The notes: generated by a model from the letters alone, not told the origin. Shown: positions 1 through 12,858, counted from the stretch's first letter. The stretch: DNA of 64,000 nucleotides from Alphaproteobacteria bacterium (GCA_900768465.1 CAAGCY010000013.1:187587-251586); one strand, 5' to 3'. Translations and numbers: made by a program.

Positions 1-1
1 T

Positions 2-130
2 CCTTTCATGACGAACCGTTCGCCGCACACGATTATTTTGCGCGTGTTTGACGTGCCGGAGGAAGGCGTTACGGAATATACAACGTCTTTGGACGGTACG
101 AAAGAAACGGTTTACTATCGCAAATGGTAA
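2..130 (+). CDS. 3' end (last 42 codons) of an upstream gene running off the window start; product unknown
   Basis: Frame 2 is the only + frame open across nt 2-130; the other two + frames hit stops within 60 nt. It ends at TAA 128-130 and lies just upstream of the pilus cluster. Confidence 0.25.
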   Translation, partial: PFMTNRSPHTIILRVFDVPEEGVTEYTTSLDGTKETVYYRKW

Positions 131-251
131 AATTCATCGGCGCGCGGAATGCAAGAAAATCCGTGCGCCTTTCCGTTTATAAAGGATTTTTTAAAGAATT
201 TAATGCTTTAATCGTACTTCAATAGAAGTGTGTTGTCCCTTTTCAAAGTTT

Positions 252-959
252 GGAGAAAATCTTATGACGCATCCTTTGACAAAAATCGGCATTTTCGGCG
301 CTGTTGCCGCTGTTTTTATGCTGAATGCGTGCACGCAGTTCATTTCGGACGATGATGAATGGCCCGGCGTTTCCGCCGGGACGGTTTCGTCGGCGCCCGA
401 TTTTACGGCTCCCGTTGCGGGGGGGCAGTTCGGACAACGCACGCCGTCCGATGTCATGCAGAACCGAAACGGATATCGCGGCGAAGATTTGGCGGCAACC
501 GCTCCGTCCGCAGGGGCGAACGGGCTGTACAGCTATGACAGTTCGATGGATACGGGCGATGCCGTTGCGGCAAACGCCGGTTCAAACTTGTCGGGCAGCT
601 TGACCGCCGCTTCGAACGGCAACGCCGCTTCGACGGCGTCGAACGCTTCAAACGGCGCCGGTTCGGGGGATGACGTTTACGATCCCGAAGACCCCGTGGA
701 AGACTGGCTGGCGACCGAAGGCAGCTCTGTTCGCGGATTGCTGACGGAATGGGGCGACAAAGCGGGGTGGCGTGTGATTTGGAACACGGACCGCGAATAT
801 ATTTTGGAAGCGGGCGCGATGTTCCGCGGACGCTTTATGGACGTGGCTTCGGCGCTGATTCGTTCGTTCGCGCGCGCCAGACCCGCTCCGTGGGGCACTT
901 TTTACAAAGGCAACCGAGTCTTGTTGATTACGACCGTGGAGGATGAAAATGCGGATTAA
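252..959 (+). CDS. TcpQ/PilL-like lipoprotein of a type IVb pilus system (first gene of the cluster)
   Basis: ATG at 252 is preceded by GGAGA. The N-terminus MTHPLTKIGIFGAVAAVFMLNAC is a lipoprotein signal with lipobox LNAC. The middle is Gly/Ser/Ala-rich and looks disordered. The conserved C-terminal block WRVIWNTDREYILEAGAMFRGRFMDVASALIRSF resembles the TcpQ/PilL C-terminal domain from memory. The gene sits immediately upstream of the secretin and overlaps it, as tcpQ-tcpC and pilL-pilN do. Confidence 0.45.
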   Translation, partial: GENLMTHPLTKIGIFGAVAAVFMLNACTQFISDDDEWPGVSAGTVSSAPDFTAPVAGGQFGQRTPSDVMQNRNGYRGEDLAATAPSAGANGLYSYDSSMDTGDAVAANAGSNLSGSLTAASNGNAASTASNASNGAGSGDDVYDPEDPVEDWLATEGSSVRGLLTEWGDKAGWRVIWNTDREYILEAGAMFRGRFMDVASALIRSFARARPAPWGTFYKGNRVLLITTVEDENAD

Positions 960-2559
960 CAGTAAATTTACAGCGATAGCACTCTGCCTGTCGATGGCGG
1001 GGCTGACATCCTCCTGCCGTTTGTTTACGACGGTAACCAAGCACACCGACCGCACGTTGGACAAGATTCAAAACGTGCTGGACGAACCGGTCGCGCCCTC
1101 CGATATGTACAGTCTGGATACCATTTCGGTCAAAGACGATATTTGGCTGGGCAGTCAAAGCGTTCGCGGCAATCAGGGCGATCCTTTGCCCGCGCGCTTT
1201 GAATCGGATGAGGGCATTACGTTGGTCAGCACGACGCCGGTTTCGCTGCTGCAGGTTTCGGAACAAATCACCGCGCTGACGGGCATTACCGTTCGCGTGG
1301 ACGATATGATTTTGGATGAAGTCAAAAACGCCACGCAGGGCAAAGAAGGCGACGCTTCTCAAGGCGCGGCGACCAACACCGACACCAATTTGTATATGCC
1401 CGCTTATTCCGGAAAATTAAGCGGACTGCTGGATCAGATTGTTTCGCGTTTCGCTTTGTGGTGGCGTTACAAAAACGGCGTGATTACGTTCTACAAACAG
1501 GAAACGCGCGTGTTTACGATTTACGCGCTGCCCGTGCAGACTCAGCTGAGCGCGAACATCGCGGGAACGGCTTCGGGTGAAGCGGGCGGCACGACGTCCG
1601 CGTCGATGTCGTCGTCGATTTCACTGGATTTGTGGGCGCAAATCGAATCCGCCATTACATCGATGTTGCCGGGCGGCGCGACGCTGAACGTCATTCCCGC
1701 CAACGGTACGCTGACGGTAACGGCGCCTCCGTATACTTTGCAGCGTGTCGCGCAGTACATCAACAGCATGAACGAAAAACTGTCGCGTCAGGTCGCCATC
1801 GGCGTCAAGGTGCTGAACGTTACTTTGTCCGATTCTGCCAGTGCGGGATTGAACCTGGCATCCGTGCTGAAGTTTGTCAGCAAAAAATCGGGCAGCGGCA
1901 TTGCGACCACGTTGTCTTCTCCGTCGTCGCAAACCAGCGGCACATCGGGTTCTTTGAGCATCGGCATTTTGAATCCCAACGGACACGGTCATATCGCCGA
2001 CGGCAGTAAAATTCTGATGGAAGCTTTGTCTACGCAGGGAACGGCGTCTTTGGTCACCAGCGCGTCCGTGATTACGATGAACAACAAAATCGCGCCCGTT
2101 CAGGTTTCGACCAACGAATCGTACATTGAAAAGTCCGAAACGACGGTCAGTTCCGATTCGACATCCATTTCCGTCACGCCCGCGAAAATCAACTACGGCT
2201 TTACGATGGAAATCCTGCCGCGTCTGCTGGATCACGGACGGATGCTGCTGATGTTTACGATGACGCTGACGGACAAGGACTCCATGGATGAAAAAACATT
2301 CGGTGAAGGCACATCCAGAACGTCGATTCAGCTGCCTGTTTTGAAAACGCGCGGTTTCGTGCAGGAAGTCGCCATGACTTCGGGCGCGACGCTGGTTTTG
2401 ACAGGGTTTGAGGAAGTCAGAACGAATTCCAACAATTCCAAAGACATCACGTCGTTTTCGAAATCGGCGGATAAAAGCAGAAACGTCATGGTTATTCTGC
2501 TGACCCCCGAAGTGTTGATTTCACCGCTGGTTCCCGAAACGCGCATGAACAGCTTTTAA
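943..2559 (+). CDS. type IVb pilus secretin (lipoprotein; TcpC/BfpB/R64 PilN-like)
   Basis: The lipoprotein signal is MKMRINSKFTAIALCLSMAGLTSSC. The C-terminal region has secretin-domain character (VITMNNKIAPVQVSTNESYIEK...GFTMEILPRLLDHGRMLLMFTMTL...ATLVLTGFEEV...VMVILLTPEVL). The start overlaps the upstream gene by 17 nt. Confidence 0.8.
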   Translation: MKMRINSKFTAIALCLSMAGLTSSCRLFTTVTKHTDRTLDKIQNVLDEPVAPSDMYSLDTISVKDDIWLGSQSVRGNQGDPLPARFESDEGITLVSTTPVSLLQVSEQITALTGITVRVDDMILDEVKNATQGKEGDASQGAATNTDTNLYMPAYSGKLSGLLDQIVSRFALWWRYKNGVITFYKQETRVFTIYALPVQTQLSANIAGTASGEAGGTTSASMSSSISLDLWAQIESAITSMLPGGATLNVIPANGTLTVTAPPYTLQRVAQYINSMNEKLSRQVAIGVKVLNVTLSDSASAGLNLASVLKFVSKKSGSGIATTLSSPSSQTSGTSGSLSIGILNPNGHGHIADGSKILMEALSTQGTASLVTSASVITMNNKIAPVQVSTNESYIEKSETTVSSDSTSISVTPAKINYGFTMEILPRLLDHGRMLLMFTMTLTDKDSMDEKTFGEGTSRTSIQLPVLKTRGFVQEVAMTSGATLVLTGFEEVRTNSNNSKDITSFSKSADKSRNVMVILLTPEVLISPLVPETRMNSF

Positions 2560-11920: not shown

Positions 11921-11932
11921 GGGAGACGAGCC

Positions 11933-12805
11933 ATGTTTTTCTGGGTTGTTCTGGCTTCGCTGATGGGAATTGTTCTGTTCGGTCATTTGTCCGAAAAGAC
12001 GAAAGATCAGGAATTCTTTGTCGAACCCGTATACGAATCGCTGGCGTTGAACCTGTTTCAATATCATAACGCTGCCGTATACGGCTACGAAGCCGCCGTC
12101 AAAGCAGGATACAACAATTATCTGGCAACGGGGACGGACAACATTGCGGATTACTTTTATTCGCACGGCGACGGCATCGTTCCTTTGGCTACCGTGGAAG
12201 GCGGCGAAATCACCAAAGGCGGCGACGACAGCAATCCCATACCCGATTACATTAAGCCGTATCTGCCCATTGCGTTCAAACCGCAAAACAACACGCGTTC
12301 GTATCTGTTTTGCGTCAATGTGAACGGGCAGACTTTGTCGGCGTATTGTACGGAACCCGACGCCGTGCGCTATATCATGACGTTCCGCGAAATTCCGCCG
12401 CGCTACGACGGGGCGGATAAAATGTTGGCTTTGCGCGCGATTGCGAAAGCTTCCGATAATTCCAGAAATGTCGGCATGATTGAAATGACGGAAACGCCGC
12501 TGGCGGAAGGAACGGATGTCTATCACCAGCCTATCGGTTCGCATTTTTACATTATGGCAAGCGGTTATTCCCCCGCGACGGCGGCGTATATTCCCGATTA
12601 TATGGCATGCAAAGCACCGCGCACCAACGCCGAACCCACCGAAAAAGTGTTGGGCGACAAAGTAAGGTCCACCCGTTATCTGGTTGCTTTGTCGATTATG
12701 CAGGGGTTGGAACACAACACCAATGTCAAAGACAGCGACGGCGCGGCGACTTTAAGCACATGCAAAGCGTTGGAAGACGTTTACGGCGGCGGTGAAGGGG
12801 GATAG
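11933..12805 (+). CDS. membrane-anchored hypothetical protein co-transcribed with the giant prepilin-like gene
   Basis: GGGAGA RBS. The N-terminal hydrophobic anchor MFFWVVLASLMGIVLFGHL has no cleavable leader. The 290-aa protein has no recognisable motifs. Confidence 0.5.
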   Translation: MFFWVVLASLMGIVLFGHLSEKTKDQEFFVEPVYESLALNLFQYHNAAVYGYEAAVKAGYNNYLATGTDNIADYFYSHGDGIVPLATVEGGEITKGGDDSNPIPDYIKPYLPIAFKPQNNTRSYLFCVNVNGQTLSAYCTEPDAVRYIMTFREIPPRYDGADKMLALRAIAKASDNSRNVGMIEMTETPLAEGTDVYHQPIGSHFYIMASGYSPATAAYIPDYMACKAPRTNAEPTEKVLGDKVRSTRYLVALSIMQGLEHNTNVKDSDGAATLSTCKALEDVYGGGEGG

Positions 12806-12827
12806 ACCGTATCTTGTTCAAACAAAA

Positions 12828-12858
12828 AACCTCCGCGCAAAAGACGGAGGTTTTTTTC
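12828..12858. terminator. bidirectional rho-independent terminator between convergent genes
   Basis: AAAAAACCUCCG-cgcaaaaga-CGGAGGUUUUUUU. It closes the + strand pilus transcription unit and the - strand HNH-paralog array. Confidence 0.65.

Follow-up and report, generated by a model that had tools for sequence, protein, structure and literature searches.

A chromosomal type IVb pilus assembly locus of the R64/PAPI-1 variant with a giant PilV-like prepilin in an uncultured gut alphaproteobacterium

Known systems of the R64 variant

The R64 variant of the type IVb (T4b) pilus has PilO2 (PF06864) as its specific component and hallmark. On the mobile ICE PAPI-1 of Pseudomonas aeruginosa, the genes are arranged in the order pilL2N2O2P2Q2R2S2T2V2M2 (PMC3984277; PMC5297154). 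This set includes the major pilin PilS2 as well as PilT2, ends with V followed by M, and is linked to a DNA/protein transfer system. Its PilV2, a minor pilin adhesin, is a small pilin. The thin pilus of the IncI1 plasmid R64 (pilI-pilV plus shufflon) brings cells together for transfer; its cluster has pilS, pilT, pilU, pilK and pilM, and the Rci shufflon swaps the C-termini of PilV. PAPI-1 and the chromosomal Tfp7 cluster of Burkholderia are without pilU, and the peptidase is encoded elsewhere (PMC3984277). As R64 has this gene and the other two do not, pilU within the cluster is not strictly defining.

Tfp7 of Burkholderia pseudomallei is a genus-conserved R64-variant cluster in which TcpQ replaces PilL and V2 and M2 are adjacent. 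It has pilS2 in the operon and pilT2 nearby, and no adjacent type IV secretion system has been reported for it. R64-variant clusters have already been annotated in Alphaproteobacteria too: a Bosea plasmid carries one, and MAGs contain others labelled 'PilO2'. The T4b cluster on plasmid pBSY19_1 of Bosea sp. RAC05 encodes TcpQ, secretin, PilO2, a hypothetical protein, ATPase and platform in this order and, further on, a PilV of 508 aa. A second, PilT-like ATPase and a 199-aa gene come before this PilV.

Every characterised T4b system requires a major pilin (PMC5297154). Large minor pilins are represented by TcpB and CofB of the TCP and CFA/III pili, which are tip-located, prime assembly and bind partner proteins (PMC5207764, PMC6048534, PMC9565799). 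In modular type IV pilins, such as PilB of the T4a-like, monoderm system of Streptococcus sanguinis, a pilin module is grafted to bulky functional modules (PMC8179133).

Gene content and class of the locus

The locus described here lies in a 64,000-nucleotide stretch of DNA (the window; CAAGCY010000013.1:187587-251586 of assembly GCA_900768465.1) from an uncultured human-gut alphaproteobacterium, whose relatives are uncultured gut and rumen Alphaproteobacteria. The pilus assembly gene set occupies positions 252-8207 (Table 1).

Table 1. Features of the pilus locus, in positions of the window
Feature	Position	Strand	Comment
First gene of the pilus operon, 3' end	1..129	+	full gene 724 aa in loci L001-L006
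g1, PilL/TcpQ-like lipoprotein	252..959	+	TcpQ PF10671, signal peptide and lipobox
g2, PilN-family type IVb secretin	943..2559	+	TIGR02520, Secretin PF00263
g3, PilO2, bitopic, cytoplasmic actin-like N-domain	2576..3964	+	PAP_PilO PF06864
g4, secreted Pro/Ala-rich coiled-coil protein, PilP position	3933..5372	+	signal peptide, weak PilP match
g5, PilQ-type assembly ATPase	5426..7102	+	T2SSE; start probably ATG at 5432
g6, PilR platform protein	7119..8207	+	T2SSF
Intrinsic terminator hairpin	8213..8237	+	-21 kcal/mol, z -5.3, then U-run
Cluster of short direct repeats	8223..8680	.	several repeat families
g7, giant PilV-family prepilin, 1024 aa	8846..11920	+	class-III signal, PilV homology
g8, 290 aa, pilin/PilM-like fold, uncleaved N-terminal hydrophobic helix (MFFW...)	11933..12805	+	

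A preliminary description of this DNA had recognised six co-oriented machinery genes, and profile searches against Pfam and NCBIfam matched the proposed families at the expected places: TcpQ/PilL, a secretin of the PilN family, PilO2, a protein with weak likeness to PilP, an ATPase of the PilQ type and a PilR platform. All eight ORFs (g1-g8) are intact, and the pairs g1/g2 and g3/g4 overlap. The TcpQ profile covers residues 151-227 of g1 (E 1.2e-15; 57.7 bits against a cutoff of 27), whose signal peptide ends with an LNAC lipobox. The secretin g2 scores 44.9 bits with PF00263 (E 1.2e-11; cutoff 27.5) and 268.7 bits with TIGR02520, just below the equivalog cutoff of 287.65. Residues 54-458 of g3 match PAP_PilO (E 1.8e-24; 86.8 bits against a cutoff of 26.7); the protein is 28% identical to the Bosea PilO2 (E 5e-30), and its homologues carry the NCBI name 'type 4b pilus protein PilO2'. 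The C-terminus of g4 matches the PilP model TIGR03021 weakly (E 0.0026; 18.8 bits, below the cutoff of 34.65), and g4 does not significantly resemble its positional counterpart in the Bosea cluster; its position and signal peptide are consistent with PilP. T2SSE is matched by g5 (E 1e-64, 219 bits), which has a Walker A motif and a CxxC...CxxC motif, and T2SSF by two stretches of g6 (E 3e-22, 79 bits), called as 362 aa in loci L001-L006.

The gene whose 3' end opens the window has a homologue ahead of TcpQ in every related locus. In its product (~700-820 aa), a long linker rich in Ala, Pro and Lys joins an N-terminal TM helix to a conserved C-terminal domain of ~115 aa. It has no Pfam or NCBIfam match, and a profile of the C-terminus finds a Pal/OmpA-like domain only weakly (E 0.31).

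The earlier assignment to the T4b pili was borne out and can be narrowed to the PilO2-containing R64/PAPI-1 variant, as opposed to T2SS or Tad. Judged by pairwise and profile scores, g5 is closest to T4b ATPases, the kinship that had been proposed for it. Over its full length, it aligns with the ATPases of T4b clusters (a Bosea PilO2 cluster, BfpD) at 283-330 bits, versus 160 bits for plasmid GspE, and its best plasmid matches sit in T4b clusters. The TadA-family model gives it 48 bits, compared with 232 for GspE and 205 for PilB. The best ATPase match, from Bosea pBSY19_1, is 36.6% identical; identity to the IncI PilQ is only 28-30%. A type II secretion system was rejected because GspC/L/M and the pseudopilins GspG-K were not found, the accessory proteins PilO2 and TcpQ were found instead, and the best model for the secretin is T4b PilN. 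A Tad/Flp pilus was likewise rejected, given the weak TadA-family score and the failure to find Flp or RcpA.

With g4 taken as a putative PilP and g8 as a putative PilM, the gene order of the window is pilL-N-O-P-Q-R…V-M, like that of PAPI-1, where V and then M also come last. PilL, N, O, the putative P, Q and R are shared with R64, TcpQ in the place of PilL and the adjacent V and M-like genes with Tfp7, and the order from TcpQ to the platform, with PilV further on, with Bosea pBSY19_1. PAPI-1 and the Bosea cluster differ in lying on an ICE and on a plasmid, respectively.

Genomic context and conservation

The core chromosomal setting that had been suggested for the cluster holds on its downstream side, where the rest of the window consists of housekeeping genes, including PDT/pheA, QueA, Ros/MucR, MutS, GlnD, MurJ and AddAB. 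It does not hold on the other side, where core genes do not simply continue: immediately upstream of position 1 lie the 724-aa bitopic protein and a divergent VirB2-VirB3-VirB4-VirB5-like type IV secretion operon. This operon encodes VirB4 (PF03135), TrbC/VirB2 (PF04956), a 96-aa VirB3-sized protein and VirB5-like secreted proteins. The head-to-head arrangement of secretion system and pilus is kept in every relative whose locus spans both sides, and across these loci VirB4 is 70-100% and PilO 42-81% identical. Like PAPI-1, the pilus cluster is linked to a transfer system, but its neighbour, unlike that of PAPI-1, is VirB-like, chromosomal and lineage-conserved. Near the operon of the window species, neither a relaxase nor a coupling protein was seen, nor any of VirB6-B11. 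Two VirB8 genes lie near the operon of one relative only (70% VirB4 identity) and none near that of the window species, so that the secretion-system genes are visibly scattered in this lineage.

The proposed comparison of the first 12.8 kb with the rest of the sequence was run, and the pilus region is compositionally native in GC, GC3 and tetranucleotides (GC 0.543 vs 0.540; tetranucleotide r 0.964 vs 0.973-0.991 for control windows). No tRNA is present, and the interval from about -17 kb to +64 kb has no gene for an integrase, a relaxase or a coupling protein. The pilus/secretion supercluster is found in all relatives and its divergence follows relatedness, while the flanking genes vary between species. 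PilO does not differ among 55 assembly blocks of the species and is 100% conserved in many independent metagenomes; between species, PilQ and PilR retain 67-97% identity. The machinery is native to the lineage and inherited vertically, and it always stands head-to-head with VirB2-VirB3-VirB4-VirB5-like genes.

Major pilin, prepilin peptidase and retraction ATPase

A six-frame class-III scan, an A24 motif scan and Pfam agree with the preliminary description that the window holds no small pilin, A24 peptidase or retraction ATPase. Class-III signals are confined to g7, the A24 motif GxGD[VI]K is absent from all ORFs, and Peptidase_A24, PilS and a second T2SSE have no Pfam match in the window. The possibility that pilin and peptidase genes directly precede position 1 came to nothing: neither was found in the ~17 kb upstream, nor in more than 40 related loci, none of which contains another class-III signal. 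A distant relative (42% PilO identity) has two PilS pilins (PF08805) directly after pilR, which implies that the ancestral system had a major pilin. At this position, PilS is absent in the window and in the relatives with 53-78% PilO identity.

The missing peptidase, at first regarded as an oddity, is not one, as PAPI-1 and Tfp7 are also without pilU. To our knowledge, there is no such precedent for a missing major pilin. This is the sole remaining unusual feature, and it applies locally only; that the major pilin and the peptidase are encoded elsewhere is our assumption.

The giant PilV-like prepilin and its partner

The terminator, the repeat cluster and the giant prepilin-like gene noticed earlier behind the machinery genes are all real. 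The terminator hairpin directly follows the stop codon of g6, and a 33-mer of the repeat cluster is found nowhere else in the window. The spacer between pilR and g7 is strain-variable, ranging from 517 to 757 bp across loci L001-L006. The giant gene and its membrane partner are present as described; they are no extra to the pilus genes, though, but a PilV homologue followed by a protein with a PilM/pilin-like fold.

The class-III signal of g7 reads ...DQRG|ALMVEAIALLGL, with the cleavage site RG|ALMVE. RGALM.E.IALLGLMT is invariant in 59 homologues, and g7 retains the invariant Glu5 and the polymerisation helix. A PilV constant region (~1-320) is followed by a beta-rich variable stalk (~320-700) and a Cys-rich C-terminal domain (~700-1024). 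On sequence comparison, g7 is a PilV homologue: its N-terminus aligns with the Bosea PilV (hhalign 97.3%, E 2e-11), and residues 1-319 match Shufflon_N (PF04917, 28.4 bits against a cutoff of 27.5), the N-terminal constant region of the R64 PilV. Its presumed role as a minor pilin adhesin is the one known from the small PilV2 of PAPI-1. The middle region shows a weak likeness to the VgrG trimeric beta-helix (DUF2345 in homologues; PDB VgrG, E 0.04). The structure model is poor (pLDDT 57) and has no significant structural match. The protein belongs to a large family (518 clusters at 50% identity) whose members are always about 1 kaa long.

Residues 1-450 of g7 do not vary within the species, and residues 501-600, 751-850 and 951-1024 are polymorphic, the pattern that would be expected for an exposed, receptor-binding tip. 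Unlike in R64, this variation is allelic between strains and affects the stalk and the C-domains. An R64-type shufflon was rejected, as the window contains no integrase/recombinase family and g8 begins only 12 nt after g7. TcpB and CofB resemble g7 in being large minor pilins of T4b systems that combine a pilin domain with a beta-repeat linker and a C-terminal domain, but they have no sequence homology to g7, which is twice as long and has domains unrelated by sequence. With the S. sanguinis PilB-type pilins g7 shares the modular principle, whereas their modules are others and the proteins much smaller.

The fold of the partner g8 is pilin/PilM-like, and the protein lacks a leader and starts directly with a hydrophobic helix resembling that of pilins; its top Foldseek match is CofB, at a non-significant score. 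It adjoins g7 in 17 of the 18 relatives scanned, the remaining locus breaking off within g7, and an alignment confirmed the pairing. The pair is kept across the lineage, yet in all other species it lies more than 10 kb from the machinery, in differing housekeeping contexts. Its functional link to the pilus machinery is suggested by homology to PilV and, putatively, PilM and by the adjacency in one species.

Proposed function

With a probability of roughly 60%, the window encodes a native thin pilus of the R64/PAPI-1 type, tipped by a polymorphic giant PilV-like adhesin and serving the adjacent secretion system. A device without any major pilin is an unlikely alternative. Here, the T4b machine of this clade would have ceased to build a long fibre and would assemble only g7 and the leaderless g8 as a very short stalk, yielding a trimeric beta-helical spike at the secretin that works with the secretion system. 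Such a device would suit the absence of PilS after pilR outside the distant relative, the lack of other class-III signals, the large g7 family of constant length, the weakly VgrG-like stalk and the pilin-like start of g8. However, the absence of a small pilin holds only for the examined loci, pilus and secretion genes are scattered in the lineage, all characterised T4b systems need a major pilin, and Glu5 and the polymerisation helix of g7 fit incorporation into a fibre. It is less probable still that g7 and g8 stem from another type IV filament system and came to lie beside pilR in one species by rearrangement. The housekeeping surroundings of the pair in all other species, and the terminator and strain-variable repeat junction between pilR and g7, would be compatible with such an event. 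Against it, the N-domain of g7 is specifically PilV-like, and Shufflon_N is a family tied to R64-variant T4b pili; moreover, a V-M pair closes the PAPI-1 and Tfp7 operons, and none of the loci showed any further pilus machinery.

The proximity of VirB2/B3/B4, the conjugative function of known R64-variant pili and the differing flanks between species might suggest that the cluster is the pilus part of an integrated conjugative element or of a recently acquired island, as in PAPI-1, SPI-7 or R64. The native composition, the lack of a tRNA and, between about -17 kb and +64 kb, of integrase, relaxase and coupling protein genes, the presence of the supercluster in all relatives with divergence tracking relatedness, and the identity of PilO across the assembly blocks make this very unlikely. 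Least probable of all is a non-functional, decaying remnant that has lost pilS, pilT and pilU. Three of the ten PAPI-1-type genes are indeed missing locally, and repeats occupy the position of pilS in the distant relative, but the ORFs are intact, PilO, PilQ and PilR are conserved as described above, and the polymorphism of g7 is patterned rather than random.

In the favoured native thin pilus, the ATPase and platform would polymerise pilins by way of the secretin and its assisting lipoprotein. Both the major pilin and the peptidase presumably lie elsewhere in the genome, in which secretion and pilus genes are scattered. Once cut at RG|ALMVE by this peptidase, g7 would prime the fibre and occupy the tip, probably in trimeric form and carried by a beta-helical stalk, and its polymorphic distal domains may bind a surface receptor on another cell. 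Cell contact would then serve transfer via the neighbouring type IV secretion system, which is the part played by thin pili in R64 and PAPI-1. The locus is an unusual form of the known R64/PAPI-1-type machine and not a new kind.

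The pilus cluster and its family

Eight open reading frames (g1–g8), all on the plus strand, make up positions 1–12858 of the window. The family assignments that the preliminary description had made for g1–g6 were borne out by profile searches, including the TcpQ/PilL likeness of the first gene, though the PilP match of g4 is weak. For g4, identification as PilP through the protein in the equivalent position of the type IVb (T4b) pilus cluster on plasmid pBSY19_1 of Bosea sp. RAC05 was attempted, and the BLASTP result was not significant. The remaining window (pheA/PDT, TerC, QueA, Ros/MucR, AnmK, GpsA, TsaD, MurJ, GlnD, MutS, BipA, MacB and AddAB) is alphaproteobacterial housekeeping, and the window has no tRNA genes.

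Features of the pilus region in window coordinates
Feature	Position	Strand	Assignment	Details
g1	252-959	+	TcpQ/PilL	PF10671, E 1.2e-15; lipobox LNAC
g2	943-2559	+	PilN-family T4b secretin	TIGR02520, 268.7 bits (cutoff 287.65); PF00263
g3	2576-3964	+	PilO2	PF06864, E 1.8e-24
g4	3933-5372	+	PilP-like	Signal peptide, coiled coil; TIGR03021, E 0.0026 (weak)
g5	5426-7102	+	Assembly ATPase	T2SSE, E 1e-64
g6	7119-8207	+	Platform	T2SSF, E 3e-22
Hairpin with U-run	8213-8237		After g6 stop codon	-21 kcal/mol, z -5.3; strong
Direct-repeat cluster	8223-8680		Spacer between g6 and g7	
g7	8846-11920	+	Giant PilV-like prepilin	1024 aa; class-III signal DQRG/ALMVEAIALLGL
g8	11933-12805	+	Partner of g7	290 aa; starts 12 nt after g7

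When the g5 ATPase was compared against 72,556 plasmids, the best matches were T4b clusters. It is 36.6% identical (330 bits) to the Bosea ATPase, 36.5% to the ATPase of T4b clusters on E. coli plasmids and 34.8% (283 bits) to BfpD, with a query coverage of 89–92% in these matches. Plasmid GspE reached 160 bits with 72% of the query covered, IncI PilQ 157–185 bits and the TadA-family model 48 bits; by these scores the ATPase belongs with T4b rather than T2SS or Tad systems, as had been proposed. Gene order in the Bosea cluster follows that of the window (TcpQ, secretin, PilO2, hypothetical protein, ATPase, platform) but continues with a second ATPase and a 199-aa gene before PilV. The PAPI-1 order is pilL2N2O2P2Q2R2S2T2V2M2 (PMC3984277). 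Because the ATPase matches and both gene orders agree, the window cluster is assigned by sequence to the R64/PAPI-1 variant of the T4b pilus. This machinery family is already known and annotated, and the window genes join it; NCBI names the PilO homologues "type 4b pilus protein PilO2 [Alphaproteobacteria bacterium]".

The missing major pilin and peptidase

Two PilS/Bundlin pilins directly follow pilR in L031, a distant relative with 42% PilO identity, whereas relatives at 53–78% PilO identity and the window itself have no PilS at this position. A tblastn search with both L031 pilins against the window and all compared loci found no pilS remnant in the spacer (8208-8845) or elsewhere. Strict and permissive six-frame class-III scans of the window and ~60 loci returned nothing beyond g7 homologues and the two L031 pilins; in the window they yielded g7 alone, in agreement with the earlier statement that a classical small major pilin is lacking there. 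Neither the motif scan nor the Pfam records of the window genes gave an A24 peptidase, and there is no second T2SSE ATPase in the window, again as described before. The peptidase is thus indeed missing from the cluster, but this is not unusual: pilU is absent from PAPI-1 and from the chromosomal Burkholderia Tfp7, and PilS2 of P. aeruginosa is cleaved by PilD of another system (PMC3984277). Since the pilus and secretion genes are so scattered, the simplest assumption is that the major pilin and the peptidase are encoded elsewhere in the genome. A literature search on secretion or pili in RF32 or gut Alphaproteobacteria found nothing relevant.

The giant prepilin g7 and its partner

The N-terminus of g7 (residues ~1–320) is strongly conserved, with an invariant RGALM.E.IALLGLMT motif. 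It aligned with Bosea PilV (hhalign 97.3%, E 2e-11) and matched Shufflon_N with 28.4 bits (cutoff 27.5); on these alignments, this part is homologous to the PilV constant region. In the AF2 model, residues 40–235 form a long alpha-1 helix and a beta-sheet (pLDDT 70–85). A search with the whole model, which is poor (pLDDT 57), gave no significant fold match. The middle (~320–700) is beta-rich, differs between species and weakly resembles VgrG beta-helices, while the C-terminus (~700–1024) is Cys-rich and conserved. Among 40 within-species variants, residues 1–450 do not vary, and polymorphism falls at residues 501–600, 751–850 and 951–1024. Because variation is confined to the later residues, the protein fits a putative conserved assembly module joined to an exposed, diversifying binding end.

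A 90%-identity collection contained 179 g7 homologues, the best-scoring being 950–1100 aa long, and the few with an organism name came from uncultured gut or rumen Alphaproteobacteria. The same origin applies to 17 of the 18 related genome loci with g7. The exception, CAVCSV010000033.1, is filed as Limosilactobacillus gorillae and carries an alphaproteobacterial g7–g8 pair (71% and 79% identity); it has probably been mis-binned. A full HMMER scan gave 518 family clusters at 50% identity, mostly 900–1400 aa and a few ~2100 aa long. Superfamily members of twice the giant size (~2,100–2,170 aa; matches P0284-P0286) retain the PilV-like N-terminus.

For g8, one variant of which is listed under "Acetobacter sp." MAG KH347, identification as PilM was sought by hhalign against the 169-aa gene after Bosea PilV and by a PDB profile search, both of which were empty. 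The best Foldseek match, CofB, was not significant. Only in the window species does g7–g8 follow pilR, across the terminator and a strain-variable spacer (517–757 bp); in all other species, the pair is surrounded by housekeeping genes that differ from case to case, and any pilus machinery is over 10 kb away. The order is M–V in a more distant member (L060 2-3805), where a g8-like gene precedes the giant prepilin and no pilus machinery is nearby. In two relatives (L028 19204-20172; L018 ~20255-20596), a lone 322-aa PilT/VirB11-like T2SSE ATPase, absent from the window, is encoded ~6 kb downstream of g7–g8; it may be a retraction ATPase or a scattered VirB11.

The terminator and repeat cluster reported after g6 were both recovered. 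The repeats comprise a 54-nt element present twice, together with two complete copies and two partial ones of a CCCGTCATTGCGAGGAGYGGAACGACGAAGCAATCC-type element. They seem to break assemblies, because a metagenome contig of this species appears to stop inside them. Between g8 and pheA, three tandem paralogues of 186, 186 and 221 aa (12875-14677, minus strand), which occupy this place in the window species only, share a motif like NxHHKxPxxGGGxNxFxNxxL...H that resembles HNH/beta-beta-alpha-Me nucleases. They have no Pfam match; roles as toxins, effectors or selfish nucleases are conceivable.

The adjoining VirB genes and the origin of the supercluster

An identical PilO sequence occurs in 55 assembly blocks, with contigs as long as 318 kb, and all blocks examined came from human-gut metagenomes. 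On these contigs, the window start is the final 129 nt of the first gene of the pilus operon, which encodes a 724-aa bitopic protein; the C-terminal domain of this protein matched OmpA-like Pal weakly (E 0.31). Divergent from this gene lie genes for TrbC/VirB2, a 96-aa VirB3-sized protein, VirB4 (PF03135), two VirB5-like secreted proteins and three further secreted low-complexity proteins, after which housekeeping resumes with Fur and dUTPase. The core chromosomal context proposed earlier holds for the window and beyond this set, but a VirB operon directly adjoins the pilus genes. A complete type IV secretion system beside the cluster was not recovered, the five downstream genes being without family match and followed by housekeeping. 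Two VirB8 genes follow in a relative whose VirB4 is 70% identical, which suggests that the secretion system is real, with its genes scattered in the window species.

In that relative, the tandem VirB8 genes (L051 20556-22312) are preceded by a 1014-aa protein of no known family, and the duplicated, scattered VirB components recall the Rickettsiales vir layout. The secreted proteins after VirB4 (L049 13257-17547; L032 4974-9679, upstream of the window) include VirB5-like coiled-coil proteins, and two longer ones have in common a repetitive C-terminal module rich in Lys, Glu and Asp (...DATVKDEKTK...DGNKDVNAAVKQGIDLTVKDEK...). These secreted proteins change fast, with 30–60% identity between close strains at 88–100% for VirB4. 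Near pilus-related loci of relatives are also a 646-aa ankyrin-repeat protein (L058 21346 onward), a weak TLC (ATP/ADP translocase) match (L027 20119-21462) and a Sel1-repeat protein (L049 20916-21440), which may point to a life in association with hosts or cells.

The head-to-head order of [VirB2-B3-B4...] and [bitopic protein-TcpQ-PilN-PilO-PilP-PilQ-PilR] is kept in every related locus spanning both sides, at 70–100% VirB4 and 42–81% PilO identity, and the outer flanks vary. The preliminary description called for a GC and codon-usage comparison; in GC, GC3 and tetranucleotide composition, 1–12858 resembles the remainder of the window. Near the pilus cluster, neither an integrase nor a relaxase nor a coupling protein was found. 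Because the arrangement is conserved, the composition matches and mobility genes were not found nearby, the supercluster is native and vertically inherited, not a recent island.

Proposed function and alternatives

The favoured reading, with a probability of about 0.6, is an R64/PAPI-1-type thin pilus in which the giant PilV-like adhesin, itself processed by a peptidase encoded elsewhere, would prime assembly and form the tip. The pilus would bring cells into contact for the co-inherited VirB system. The contact role is proposed by analogy with R64 and PAPI-1, whose PilV binds recipient LPS (PMC5297154); the tip minor pilins TcpB and CofB are a further analogy for g7.

Alternatively, the T4b machine might have lost its major pilin in this clade of gut Alphaproteobacteria and now serve solely to export and anchor the ~1,000-residue PilV-derived protein and its leaderless pilin-fold partner. 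A short, trimeric, VgrG-like beta-helical spike would then be shown at the secretin and, with the VirB system, would form a contact or puncturing device. The pilin-free scans and the beta-rich middle of g7 are compatible with such a spike, the scattering of pilus and secretion genes in this lineage favours a complete pilus, and spike display is considered unlikely. The separate location of g7–g8 in other species would suit a merely coincidental adjacency to the machinery, set against the PilV-type N-terminus; this is judged less likely again. An ICE module would suit the adjoining VirB genes, yet it is hard to reconcile with native inheritance and is quite improbable. Least probable is a decayed remnant, which would account for the absent pilS.

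New here are the chromosomal, lineage-wide pairing of T4b pilus genes with a VirB system, the uncharacterised 1-kaa PilV family and the local loss of pilS. The large and wholly unannotated PilV family stretches the idea of modular pilins to ~1–2 kaa and makes it possible to ask whether a tip pilin alone is enough for a T4b machine to function; if the spike-display reading were true, hundreds of uncharacterised giant PilV-like clusters would make up a novel class of surface spikes anchored by a pilin. Uncultured gut Alphaproteobacteria, whose MAGs are labelled "Acetobacter sp." or "Alphaproteobacteria bacterium", occur commonly in the guts of humans and animals. For these bacteria, the chromosomally fixed pairing of VirB genes with an R64-type pilus suggests a way of life centred on contact-dependent transfer to other cells, with specificity determined, on this view, by the giant PilV-like adhesin, which is polymorphic between strains.
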